Below are positions 14,972 through 16,969 of a DNA stretch of 24,000 bases, piece after piece (position 1 is the first letter of the stretch; every line of letters begins with the position of its first letter). The position numbers were made by a program, and so were the translations under genes. The DNA comes from Cohnella rhizosphaerae (GTDB lineage: Bacteria > Bacillota > Bacilli > Paenibacillales > Paenibacillaceae): positions 712,214-736,213 of the forward strand of contig NZ_JAPDIA010000003.1 of assembly GCF_029525575.1 (NCBI RefSeq), read 5' to 3'. Under the pieces are notes generated by a model. It saw nothing but the letters and a program-made list of their open reading frames with translations. It ran no database searches and was not told the DNA's origin.

Positions 14972-15095
14972 ATCATGGAGGCGCAAGGAAGGGTTACTTC
15001 GTCCAAATGGCTTTAGGTTAGGATCGACACCCTAACCGCTTCGATCCAAAACCGGATCGAGGCAGCGAACCTTTCCAACCCATTTCCTCCATGAT
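14972..15095 (+). ncRNA. Y-RNA-like element A (no tRNA-like domain)
   Basis: Outer stem ATCATGGAGG (14972-14981) / CCTCCATGAT (15086-15095). Internal loop CGCAA versus AACCCATTT. Inner helix GGAAGGG (14987-14993) / CCTTTCC (15070-15076), followed by TTACTTCG. Interior hairpins: GGTTAGG/CCTAACC (15016-15037) and GCTTCGATCC/GGATCGAGGC (15038-15063). The architecture matches elements B and C. Confidence 0.65.
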
Positions 15096-15184
15096 ATCAT
15101 TCATGCAGTTTATGGTTGACAGCGTTAAACGCCCGATGCCAGGATTACCAGCAACATACTGAATTGGAGAAAGGAGTGCGGAAC

Positions 15185-15364
15185 ATGCGCAATACGAATT
15201 TTATCTATGAACGTCCGGATCATCGCAGCCCGATGTCCCAGATTAAAGGCGGCCAGCGAGAGATAAGCTTATTCAACCCGCATCATCTGTATCTCCAATC
15301 TCATATCGGCATTCTTTACAGGCGCAGACCCGCTTCGGTTCGTCGGTTGTTTTCTACAGCCTGA
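15185..15364 (+). CDS. Small basic ORF (59 aa), doubtful
   Basis: Good RBS AAGGAG 15171-15176 with an 8-nt spacer and ATG 15185. However, codon usage is atypical for this genome (ata, tta, aga, agg) and there is no recognisable family. Confidence 0.25.
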   Translation: MRNTNFIYERPDHRSPMSQIKGGQREISLFNPHHLYLQSHIGILYRRRPASVRRLFSTA

Positions 15365-15455
15365 CGCCGCCGGCGACGGCATACATATGCGTACCCGTGA
15401 AGACTGCTTGTAGCCGAGCGGTCTTTTTCTATGGCTGAATGCAGCCTTAGAGGAA

Positions 15456-15483
15456 GATCCGAGGGCGACAGGGGTCTTTTTTT
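15456..15483 (+). terminator. Weak terminator-like hairpin plus T7
   Basis: GATCC (15456-15460) pairs with GGGTC (15472-15476, one G-U pair), followed by T7 15477-15483. Confidence 0.3.
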
Positions 15484-15606
15484 CATACCTAAACGGCCCC
15501 TGCAAAGTACATACCGCGTCAAGCGATATTAAAACGAGGAAAGGAGGCGGCGCGCTCCTGCCATCAGGCAGGAGCGGGGCCGATCACAACAATCGCATTC
15601 CCTTAT

Positions 15607-15682
15607 GGAGACCATGGCGAAAAGGCGAACGCAGCGGACTGTGAATCCGCCAGTACCGGTTCGAGTCTGGTTGGTCTCCCCA
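15607..15682 (+). tRNA. tRNA-His (anticodon GTG) with encoded G-1 and CCA
   Basis: Manual fold: G-1; acceptor GAGACCA/TGGTCTC; D-arm closely similar to Bacillus tRNA-His; anticodon arm GCGGA-CTGTGAA-TCCGC; T-arm ACCGG-TTCGAGT-CTGGT; discriminator C73; CCA. Confidence 0.9.
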
Positions 15683-15687
15683 TACGA

Positions 15688-15761
15688 TGCCCGGTAGCCA
15701 AGCGGCAAGGCAGATGACTTTGAATCATCCACCGCAGGTTCGAATCCTGCCCGGGCAGCCA
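15688..15761 (+). tRNA. tRNA-Gln (anticodon TTG) with encoded CCA
   Basis: Acceptor TGCCCGG/CCGGGCA (U1-A72, G73). D region TAGCCAAGCGGCAAGGCA is almost as in Bacillus tRNA-Gln. Anticodon arm GATGA-CTTTGAA-TCATC. T-arm GCAGG-TTCGAAT-CCTGC. Confidence 0.9.
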
Positions 15762-15784
15762 TTCGATTGACTTTGAACCGCCGC

Positions 15785-15862
15785 GGCGTGGTGGTGAAAC
15801 TGGATGAACACACGGGCCTTTCACGTCCGGATCTGCGGGTTCGAGCCCCGTCCACGCCTCCA
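15785..15862 (+). tRNA. tRNA-Glu (anticodon TTC) with encoded CCA
   Basis: Acceptor GGCGTGG/CCACGCC. 3-bp D-stem GTG/CAC with a 10-nt loop. Anticodon arm CGGGC-CTTTCAC-GTCCG. T-arm GCGGG-TTCGAGC-CCCGT. Discriminator T, then CCA. Confidence 0.85.
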
Positions 15863-15869
15863 AATCCAT

Positions 15870-15945
15870 AGGGTTGTAGCTCAGCAGGTAGAGCGCCCGA
15901 CTGTTAATCGGACGGTCGCAGGTTCGAGCCCTGCCAACCCTGCCA
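15870..15945 (+). tRNA. tRNA-Asn (anticodon GTT) with encoded CCA
   Basis: Acceptor AGGGTTG/CAACCCT. D-arm GCTC-AGCAGGTA-GAGC. Anticodon arm CCCGA-CTGTTAA-TCGGA (C-A mismatch at 27-43). Variable region CGGTC. T-arm GCAGG-TTCGAGC-CCTGC. G73, then CCA. Confidence 0.88.
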
Positions 15946-15995
15946 ATACGACAAATCAGAAAGGAAGAAGCCGCCTTGCGCTACAGGTGACACTT

Positions 15996-16592
15996 ATGAA
16001 AAGACATGTATACCCCATGCTTCACGAGCAAGTCTTCCGCAATCTTTCCGAACAAAATCTGCCGCTGGACGAGGTGTTCGTCCGCATCCGAGGCTTCATG
16101 GAGCGCGATCCGCGCGCATCCTATCAGCTCGTCGTCGGGACGGACGCGCAGGTGCATGCCGGACATACGAAGTTCGTAACGTCCGTCGTCATCCTCCGCC
16201 CGGGCCGGGGCGCCTGGTTCTGCTACCGACAGGTGATCGTCCCGCGGGAGCTCCGGTCGCTGCGAGAAAAGCTGAGCCTCGAAACGACTTACAGCCAGGA
16301 GATCGCAGCTTACTTCGATGCCGGGAAAAGGGCGGTGCTGGAGGATATTCTTCTGCCCTATGCCTATCACGGCGCAAGCCTGGCGATGTTCGTCGATATC
16401 GACGCAGGTACCGACGCGAGGCGCAACCGGACGTCGGTAATGGTCGCGGAGCTGGTTGGAAGAATTGAAGCGATGGGGCTGTCGGCCCGAGTGAAACCGG
16501 AGGCGATCGCGGCTTCTTCCGTTTCCAATCGCTATACGAAAACGCCATACAGAGGCTCCTTAGCTTCAAAAACGGCATCGAATTTCGGATAA
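15996..16592 (+). CDS. YkuK/DUF458 family RNase-H-like protein
   Basis: ATG 15996 (AGGTGA 5 nt upstream). The block LDEVF..I..FM..D....YQLVVGTDAQVH..HTKFVTSVVI and the C-terminal KPEAIAASSVSNRYTK match my recollection of B. subtilis YkuK. The ORF-track extension back to 15804 runs through the tRNA genes and is rejected. Confidence 0.8.
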   Translation: MKRHVYPMLHEQVFRNLSEQNLPLDEVFVRIRGFMERDPRASYQLVVGTDAQVHAGHTKFVTSVVILRPGRGAWFCYRQVIVPRELRSLREKLSLETTYSQEIAAYFDAGKRAVLEDILLPYAYHGASLAMFVDIDAGTDARRNRTSVMVAELVGRIEAMGLSARVKPEAIAASSVSNRYTKTPYRGSLASKTASNFG

Positions 16593-16732
16593 ATTTTACA
16601 AGTCGTCATACTTGCGCCATGTTCGCAGCAGCGGATGTGCGCGATGATAAGAGCAAGCAGCCGACGCCGAAAAAGCGGGGCACAATGCAAGATGTAAATG
16701 CAAAATGAACAGATCAGTTTTCGACGTTCGTT

Positions 16733-16858
16733 CGTTGAGGCGCATGGAAGGGCTACTTCGACTTTTAATCGGCTTGTCGTTGGTTCGAATCCAACTCCCG
16801 CTTCGGCAGGATAGCTCAGACGGTAGAGCAGCATGCCTTTCCGACCTTTTCCTCAACG
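16733..16858 (+). ncRNA. yrlA: YrlA-type Y RNA (element B) with circularly permuted tRNA-like domain
   Basis: Outer stem CGTTGAGG (16733-16740) / CCTCAACG (16851-16858). Loop CGCAT versus GACCTTTT. Inner helix GGAAGGG (16746-16752) / CCTTTCC (16836-16842), followed by CTACTTCG. Interior, in order: hairpin (T)CGA-CTTTTAA-TCG(G) (16758-16772); T-arm GTTGG-TTCGAAT-CCAAC (16779-16795); acceptor-like stem TCCCGC-TTCG-GCAGGA (16796-16811); TA; D-arm GCTC-AGACGGTA-GAGC (16814-16829). Confidence 0.75.
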
Positions 16859-16874
16859 ATGCAGCACGACAAAC

Positions 16875-16969
16875 GGAGCGAGGCGAACGAGAGGGATACT
16901 TCGATATAAGGGACGGACGTGGCCATACGCTGGCCTTCCGCGAACCTTCTCGGCCATGTTCCTCGCTCC
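16875..16969 (+). ncRNA. Y-RNA-like element C (minimal), immediately upstream of the rsr RBS
   Basis: Outer stem GGAGCGAGG (16875-16883) / CCTCGCTCC (16961-16969). Loop CGAAC versus GGCCATGTT. Inner helix GAGAGGG (16889-16895) / CCTTCTC (16945-16951), followed by ATACTTCG. Inner hairpin GGCCA-tacgc-TGGCC (16921-16935). It ends 10 nt before AAGGAGG (16980-16986). Confidence 0.6.

Follow-up and report, generated by a model that had tools for sequence, protein, structure and literature searches.

The sequence analysed in this study (the window) comprises 24,000 nucleotides (nt) of the Cohnella rhizosphaerae genome (Paenibacillaceae; RefSeq assembly GCF_029525575.1, contig NZ_JAPDIA010000003.1, positions 712,214 to 736,213) and contains an rsr gene, an orthologue of Ro60, together with three structured elements, A, B and C, that resemble bacterial Y RNAs and are the subject of this analysis. 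On the plus strand, the features are arranged in the order A, a small open reading frame (ORF), a tRNA array, a DUF458 gene, B, C, rsr, and the genes for DUF6847, RlaP and RtcB (Table 1). The setting of the three elements is an RNA-repair locus, represented by RlaP and RtcB, which have been linked to the repair of cleaved tRNAs (PMC12776372; PMC7790460). The 3' ends of A, B and C are located 1.9 kb, 183 nt and 72 nt from the rsr ORF, respectively, all on the plus strand, and the rsr gene starts 26 nt 3' of C.

Table 1. Features identified around rsr (positions are those of the window)
Feature	Position	Strand	Description
Two tandem regulator genes	12675..14810	-	Divergent; WCX PF25583, weak helix-turn-helix (HTH) matches, ORF fragments
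Putative promoter/operator motif, copy 1	14887..14930	+	GCCATACTTTCGCCCTGTTCG-N17-GAAAAT; ends ~40 nt upstream of A
Y-RNA-like element A	14972-15095	+	124 nt; read from the sequence
Leader-like ORF	15185..15364	+	59 codons, conserved, strong ribosome-binding site
Attenuator-like RNA	15308..15484	+	Nearly invariant; two exclusive folds
tRNA array His(GTG), Gln(TTG), Glu(TTC), Asn(GTT)	15608..15945	+	ARAGORN, Rfam; between A and B
DUF458 / RNase H-like gene	15996..16592	+	PF04308, E 2e-43; between tRNA array and B
Putative promoter/operator motif, copy 2	16605..16648	+	GTCATACTTGCGCCATGTTCG-N17-GATGAT; 13 nt after DUF458 stop codon, upstream of B
Y-RNA-like element B	16733-16858	+	126 nt; read from the sequence
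Y-RNA-like element C	16875-16969	+	95 nt; read from the sequence
rsr, Ro60 orthologue	16996..18496	+	TROVE + Ro60 vWA; Pfam PF05731, PF25045
DUF6847 gene	18515-18976	+	Pfam; tblastn conservation
RlaP nucleotidyltransferase gene	19245-20030	+	Pfam; tblastn conservation
RNA ligase RtcB gene	20074-21339	+	Split near 20844-20851; Pfam; tblastn conservation

The layout of element A is ATCATGGAGG-CGCAA-GGAAGGG-TTACTTCG...CCTTTCC-AACCCATTT-CCTCCATGAT, that of B is CGTTGAGG-CGCAT-GGAAGGG-CTACTTCG...CCTTTCC-GACCTTTT-CCTCAACG, and that of C is GGAGCGAGG-CGAAC-GAGAGGG-ATACTTCG...CCTTCTC-GGCCATGTT-CCTCGCTCC. These layouts agree, base for base, with the elements as written down in an earlier sequence-only reading of this DNA. 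A common module was observed in all three, consisting of an outer stem ending in GAGG/CCUC, an asymmetric internal loop of 5 nt versus 8-9 nt and an inner helix of 7 base pairs (bp), which is followed by NUACUUCG in A, B and C, with UACUUCG common to all of them. The inner helix is formed by GGAAGGG/CCUUUCC in A and B and by GAGAGGG/CCUUCUC in C. Relative to A and B, element C carries two compensatory pairs (G-C to A-U and A-U to G-C), and a G.U pair occupies the fifth position in each element; both changes and the retained wobble had been read correctly beforehand. Minimum free energy folds of the plus strand (RNAfold) recovered both helices in A, B and C, with energies of -54 kcal/mol (z -6.1) for A and -41.6 kcal/mol (z -3.4) for C.

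The variable parts enclosed by this module were also described for each element. In A, a T-arm-like hairpin (GGTTAGG-ATCGACAC-CCTAACC), whose T loop is degenerate in the Cohnella rhizosphaerae window, is accompanied by a second, acceptor-like hairpin of 10 bp, without a D arm. Element B contains, in order, a V stem-loop, a T arm (GGTTCGAATCC), an acceptor-like stem of 6 bp with one C/A mismatch, and a D arm (TAGCTCAGACGGTAGAGC). The mismatch is located at 16795-16810 (TCCCGC-TTCG-GCAGGA), and close relatives have a perfect stem (GCGGGA). The variable part of C is one long irregular hairpin with no tRNA-like parts. At the YUAY site after the inner helix, UUAC is found in A and CUAC in B; C has AUAC, with a purine first.

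Further copies were searched for in the window and in 79 related rsr loci, comprising Paenibacillaceae and one Chloroflexota metagenome-assembled genome (MAG). A descriptor scan of both strands (about 1.05 Mb, with scores of at least 15 counted) identified 186 matches, every one of them on the plus (rsr) strand and no more than 3.2 kb upstream of rsr. On the minus strand of the same sequences no match reached 15, and the background maximum was 14. A covariance model, R2, was then built from an alignment (A10) of 39 YrlA-like copies of other species, with the window and its nearest relatives excluded; the aligned sequences fold into the stem, V stem-loop, T arm, 7-bp acceptor-like stem and D arm. 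In the window, R2 detected B with 125.9 bits (E 2e-29), A with 59.4 bits (E 4e-13) and C with 40.0 bits (E 2.4e-8). The alignment to A extends over the full model, through the V, T and acceptor-like parts, and that to C covers the shared stem only, with the tRNA-like core skipped. The reverse strands of A and C scored 11.7 and 10.0 bits, respectively. Real tRNAs ranked after the three elements, and the best match that was neither a Y RNA nor a tRNA reached 15.4 bits. Over 1.02 Mb of related loci, the model gave 197 matches at E <= 1e-3, all on the rsr strand; 191 were Y-like, spanned the whole model and lay upstream of rsr, and the other six were tRNAs. A covariance model from the three window copies (module plus N linker; alignment A5, model R1), a check proposed in the sequence-only reading, found only part of C with 25 bits, because inserts of 40-80 nt could not be spanned. 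The three full-length window copies were also misaligned by MAFFT.

Pair counts were obtained from 150 distinct module copies cut down to the two stem halves (alignment A1). Both helices were 97.7% paired, compared with 79.3% in shuffled data and at most 67.4% with slid partners, a percentage that is inflated in 13 core pairs because the copies were chosen with a pairing descriptor. This choice inflates neither the diversity of pair types nor the three outermost pairs, which the descriptor does not demand and which were 86-93% paired, with 5-6 pair types each. Double-sided changes were observed at 10 of the 16 pairs (461 cells versus 138 after shuffling), and the covariation score was 0.535, compared with 0.175 for shuffled data and at most 0.157 for slid partners; none of 500 shuffles reached the observed score. 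The covariation signature of an RNA family, which had been claimed from the three copies of the window, was thus borne out, and where a lack of covariation in homologous loci had been named beforehand as refuting, covariation was present in both helices. Sequence, folds, covariance model and covariation together support the description of A, B and C as paralogous Y-RNA-like elements built on one helix/internal-loop/helix module.

Within the same 150 copies, the four loop-adjacent pairs (GAGG/CCUC) hardly vary, the G.U pair is kept in 139 and replaced by G-C in the rest, and there is almost no variation in U-A-C-U-U-C-G or in the UUU before CCUC. The clade-wide module has a CGCNN loop opposite a loop of 7-11 nt that ends in UUU. 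The partner of UUCG was found to be class-dependent: in B, UUCG forms the base of the V stem and shows A-U to C-G covariation, and in both A and C its partner is the CGAA that precedes the 3' strand. Since the partner differs between classes, the conservation of UACUUCG seems to reflect recognition rather than a need to form a helix. Compensatory changes were also counted in alignments of the individual classes, and were found at 22 of 38 pairs in the B class (39 sequences), 11 of 34 in the A class (11 loci) and 10 of 23 in the C class (16 loci).

Clustering of the variable domains resulted in four classes, A to D. The B class, with 63 copies, is characterized by the full tRNA mimic. The D class (48 copies, none in the window) has a T arm only and provides the copy nearest rsr in most Paenibacillus. 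The C class features a long hairpin without tRNA features, and the A class combines a T-arm-like hairpin with a second hairpin, is located 1.8-3.1 kb upstream beyond a tRNA array, and occurs only in Cohnella, Gorillibacterium and a few Paenibacillus. Nearly all of the 79 rsr loci contain two to four copies, two or three in tandem being typical; four are present in one Cohnella MAG and in the Chloroflexota MAG, whose Rsr is only 42% identical. A 224-kb viral contig (L080) carries about eight copies in tandem directly upstream of its rsr gene, and a distal A-type copy beyond a tRNA array was identified in 11 other loci. The sequence-only reading had considered a set of three copies that includes one beyond a tRNA array to be unusual, a claim that does not hold given these numbers and that is also countered by published work, in which at least two Y RNAs per species and a Yrn2-tRNAAsp-Yrn1 polycistron are described (PMC4201824). 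Tandem module arrays upstream of rsr are carried by putative (jumbo) phage contigs; the loci listed with phage or Chloroflexota arrays are L080 (2695-4218), L082 (1301-1518) and L078 (2639-3134).

Among known Y RNAs, the closest comparison is provided by YrlA, known from Salmonella Typhimurium and Mycobacterium smegmatis (structure PDB 6CU1; bioRxiv 10.1101/312249). YrlA-like RNAs have been reported from more than 250 bacteria and phages, where they lie near rsr, within 4 kb and on the same strand, in a study that gave definitions of the motifs GNCGAAN0-1G and YUAY and of the domain resembling tRNA (Chen et al. 2014, PMC4201824). In the same study, every species examined had two or more Y RNAs, one tRNA-like and another a long hairpin; YrlA was excised from precursors and bound by Rsr, and in Deinococcus radiodurans Yrn2, tRNA-Asp and Yrn1 came from one precursor. 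Against this background, B is a YrlA-type, tRNA-like Y RNA and C is a YrlB-like hairpin RNA. With 124, 126 and 95 nt, respectively, A, B and C also fall within the size range of bacterial Y RNAs (about 80-150 nt). Like YrlA, B has the terminal stem, the 5-nt/8-nt loop, the 7-bp helix, CUAC, the V stem-loop, T arm, acceptor-like stem and D arm, and it is located on the rsr strand less than 4 kb from rsr. Element A retains the stem, UUAC and the T-arm-like and acceptor-like hairpins but, unlike YrlA, has no D arm, and it therefore reads as a YrlA derivative. The consensus stem of the Rfam YrlA family RF02553 (6-bp outer stem, 5-nt loop, 7-bp inner helix, CUA and 8-nt 3' loop), which binds Rsr, has the same architecture as the module described above. 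Unlike in the literature, where only the 5' strand is conserved across bacteria, both stem strands, the G.U pair and the extended UACUUCG are conserved here.

Element C resembles YrlB of Salmonella and M. smegmatis and Yrn2 of D. radiodurans: it is short, has an Rsr-type stem and a single long hairpin, is encoded beside a YrlA-type RNA and rsr, and is probably cut from the same precursor. The likeness to YrlB is one of fold and position, YrlB being loosely defined and without a curated model. Since the full stem module is common to C and to B, its YrlA-type neighbour, the paralogy is explicit at this locus. As in the D. radiodurans rsr locus (Yrn2-tRNAAsp-Yrn1, RNAs a, b, d), several small RNAs lie upstream of rsr with tRNA between them; unlike that locus, the insert here consists of the leader ORF, an attenuator-like RNA, four tRNAs and DUF458, and the distal element A has its own copy of the promoter motif. 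The modular logic is shared with metazoan Y RNAs (RF00019), in which a terminal stem serves Ro60 and variable parts serve other proteins, whereas their bulged-helix motif GGUCCGA is not present in A, B or C, and RF00019 gave no match in Rfam scans of the window. A Ro60-binding stem combined with an effector-binding module is the standard view of Y RNAs (10.1101/312249; PMC4201824), and the common protein-binding module with variable effector domains, as proposed in the sequence-only reading, equals this published model. That reading was right on identity and mechanism and wrong on rarity.

We consider it highly probable that A, B and C represent three bacterial Y RNAs, paralogous to one another, with a shared Rsr-docking module and variable inner parts, cut from two transcription units. 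This assignment draws on the observed sequences, pairing and covariation of the elements, on their strand and synteny with rsr, on the similarity to YrlA and on the shared promoter motif; from these we infer Rsr binding, processing, partners and regulation. In addition to the inflated pairing percentage, several points weigh against it. At permissive E-values, B matches RF02553 over its full length with 38.3 bits (E 2.7e-6), below the gathering score of 69, and for A and C Rfam gave nothing even at E <= 10. The Rfam Y RNA/YrlA scan suggested in the sequence-only reading thus supported the YrlA assignment for B, below the cut-off, and left A and C unmatched. The published 5' motif GNCGAAN0-1G is exact in C (GGCGAACG), but A (GGCGCAAG) and B (GGCGCATG) each deviate from it at one position; the clade consensus at this site is GAGGCGCNNG. 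Finally, the rsr frame is broken by an extra A at 17008-17013 (A6 in the window versus A5 in relatives), and homopolymer frameshifts were also found in both regulator genes (about 14040-14050 and about 12990) and in rtcB (about 20844-20851). These are most likely sequencing or assembly errors; if real, those in rsr and the regulator genes would mean that the system is decaying in this strain.

At gathering thresholds, only four tRNAs of the window were matched by Rfam, and the RF02553 gathering score was not reached by any match in 10 related loci. Text searches, which did not extend to the supplementary lists of Chen et al. 2014, found no paper on Y RNAs of Paenibacillaceae. What appears to be new is that the Rfam model misses this clade, that both stem strands, the G.U pair and UACUUCG are conserved in it, and that its copies form four explicit paralogous classes.

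As Y RNAs, the three elements would act through a common handle. The shared module would be the docking site for the ring protein Rsr (Ro60), with B acting as a tRNA mimic, A keeping the T-arm-like and acceptor-like hairpins, and C presenting a plain long hairpin. By analogy with D. radiodurans and Salmonella, each Y RNA might tether Rsr to a different partner or gate the Rsr cavity. The first transcript (unit 1) would contain A, the leader ORF, the tRNAs and DUF458, and the second (unit 2) B, C, rsr, DUF6847, RlaP and RtcB; the Y RNAs would be cut out of both precursors.

An alternative, which we regard as improbable, is that the three elements work in cis within the operon transcripts, for example as signals for processing or stability or as regulators in the 5' untranslated region, rather than as free RNAs bound by Rsr, with A perhaps a 5' leader structure of the unit with the leader ORF and the tRNAs. 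Their positions are compatible with such a role: A is flanked by a conserved promoter motif and the leader ORF, B and C by the second motif and the ribosome-binding site of rsr, and no terminator follows any of them. In three loci (L006, L007 and L009), the same motif drives the leader ORF directly with no A element, which indicates that A is dispensable for that unit. However, the module equals that of YrlA, which is excised and Rsr-bound (PMC4201824), and the variable domains carry conserved covarying structures of their own, including a complete tRNA mimic. Copy number (1 to 8) and order also vary freely, as expected of independent RNA genes.

Far less credible is the possibility that the elements are tRNA-derived pseudogenes, or a dispersed or mobile repeat resembling repetitive extragenic palindromic (REP) sequences or miniature inverted-repeat transposable elements (MITEs), placed near rsr by chance. 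The T-arm and D-arm sequences of B, its weak tRNA match (18 bits) and the palindromic ends of the elements would fit this origin, but the 24 kb of the window and 1 Mb of related loci contain no other copies, all copies being on one strand upstream of rsr, and the compensatory changes with the conserved G.U indicate selection on an RNA rather than a DNA repeat. That the elements are DNA operators bound by the neighbouring WYL-type regulators can be practically dismissed, for although each is a long inverted repeat near divergent regulator genes, the G.U retained in 139 of 150 copies would turn into an A/C mismatch if the opposite strand were read, stem sequences change with pairing kept, the model scores are strand-specific (59 versus 12 bits and 40 versus 10 bits), and a separate conserved non-palindromic motif is the better operator candidate. 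The mobile repeat, the tRNA pseudogene and the DNA operator were rejected on these grounds.

To our knowledge, studies of bacterial Y RNAs have covered only three species, and we know of no partners besides PNPase. The clade described here supplies about 190 examples in four paralogous classes with one sharply conserved handle (GAGG/CCUC, G.U and UACUUCG), which defines candidate Rsr contact points and offers clean material for asking what the variable domains bind. As the YrlA model misses this clade at its threshold, Y RNAs go unannotated in Paenibacillaceae genomes. The interest of the locus lies mainly in this comparative resource and in the regulatory context around the Y RNAs; the promoter motif and the leader/attenuator findings may be more novel than the Y RNAs themselves.

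The motif upstream of the elements is 21 nt long, with the consensus G[TC][AC]ATACTT.CGCC[AC]TGTTCG, and is followed by N17 and GAnnAT. It was identified in 72 of 80 sequences, always on the plus strand and about 85 nt upstream of the first Y RNA start, with the spacer fixed at 17 nt, and is a putative promoter. Cohnella-like loci with the tRNA insert contain two motif copies per locus, one before A and one before B. Since the motif precedes both, A would head a separate unit, with a control sequence in common with B-C-rsr. A third motif copy was observed downstream of rsr in one related locus (L014). The only result of a promoter/terminator scan was one weak promoter within A; no terminator was returned. 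A second, near-consensus sigma-A-type promoter was observed at 15116-15145, between A and the leader ORF, with TTGACA (15116-15121)-18-CAGGAT in the window and TAGGAT in relatives; it is absent in L002, L011 and L014. An inverted repeat, TATGGAAAC-N9-GTTGCCATA, is located at 14867-14893 in the intergenic region between the regulator genes and A, where it partly overlaps the promoter motif; it is a possible second operator. Between each promoter motif and the following Y RNA, a small conserved hairpin with a GNRA-type loop was found (14937-14971 and 16668-16700), for example GCC-GGAA-GGC, with GCC-GAAA-GGC in relatives. This hairpin may be a 5'-end stabiliser or a processing mark.

The two WYL-type regulators encoded next to A are candidates for binding the motif. 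The first regulator gene has HTH, WYL-like and WCX parts, and the pair is kept beside the Y RNAs in about 65 of the 79 loci. Its arrangement resembles that of PafB/PafC, and it stands where proteobacterial rsr-rtcBA operons have RtcR. The best matches to Rsr were found in Cohnella strains GbtcB17 and OV330, with 94-95% identity.

The insert between A and B is specific to part of the comparison set: the tRNA arrays were found only in the Cohnella-like clade, along with the DUF458 gene and the leader ORF. The N-terminal half of the leader ORF is rich in His, Gln, Asn and Glu, and its C-terminus reads GILYRRRPASVRRLFSTA. The variable half contains about 2.2 times the expected number of residues matching the downstream array tRNAs of its own locus, with enrichments of 4.8-fold for His, 2.4-fold for Gln and 2.1-fold for Asn; this enrichment is suggestive only, since the leader ORF sequences are related. 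In one species, an in-frame insertion in the leader ORF adds N-E-H-H-E-H.

The attenuator-like RNA overlaps the end of the leader ORF and has two mutually exclusive folds, each kept in about 96% of cells across 12 loci. In the first (1:2 + 3:4, read-through), the two arms of terminator 1 pair elsewhere, its 5' arm with the GILY codons and its 3' arm with the 5' arm of terminator 2. The second (2:3 + 4:5) consists of two terminator hairpins, each followed by a U run. The terminator-like hairpins (15400-15484) were found by eye and by folding, not by the terminator scan. Judged from its sequence, this RNA could form, together with the leader ORF, a ribosome-stalling attenuator that opens the tRNA array when those tRNAs are short. 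In its general plan, with a codon-enriched short ORF followed by exclusive antiterminator and terminator hairpins, it resembles the leader-peptide attenuators of the his, trp and pheST type. Unlike these, its predicted target is a tRNA array in an RNA-repair locus rather than an operon for amino-acid biosynthesis; it has two terminators, and its regulatory codons, which are of four kinds, are scattered.

A broader interpretation, which we put forward tentatively and hold to be rather less likely than not to apply in full, is that the Cohnella-type locus is a two-unit regulon under one motif and a PafBC-like WYL pair, with a tRNA sensor in unit 1 and four Y RNA classes that direct Rsr. Unit 1 would start with A, and the leader ORF with its switching RNA would serve as a stalling sensor that turns on spare copies of depleted tRNAs, for example after the action of anticodon nucleases. 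Unit 2 would supply two more Y RNAs, Rsr, RlaP and RtcB, and the Y RNA classes A to D, with their one Rsr handle, would steer Rsr to different partners. If true, this would be the first known leader-peptide attenuator over a tRNA array inside an RNA-repair system. The common motif, the WYL regulators, the tRNA array and the possible attenuator hint at how RNA repair may be wired in Gram-positive bacteria without RtcR.

The tRNA arrays of rsr loci comprise 2 to 14 genes in 15 related loci. The isotypes observed (L001-L014, L068, L072 and L076) are His, Gln, Glu, Asn, Lys, Asp, Pro, Ile, Trp and one Val, a set that presumably overlaps known targets of anticodon nucleases. In the window, all four tRNA genes encode CCA, and the tRNA-His has G-1 opposite C73.

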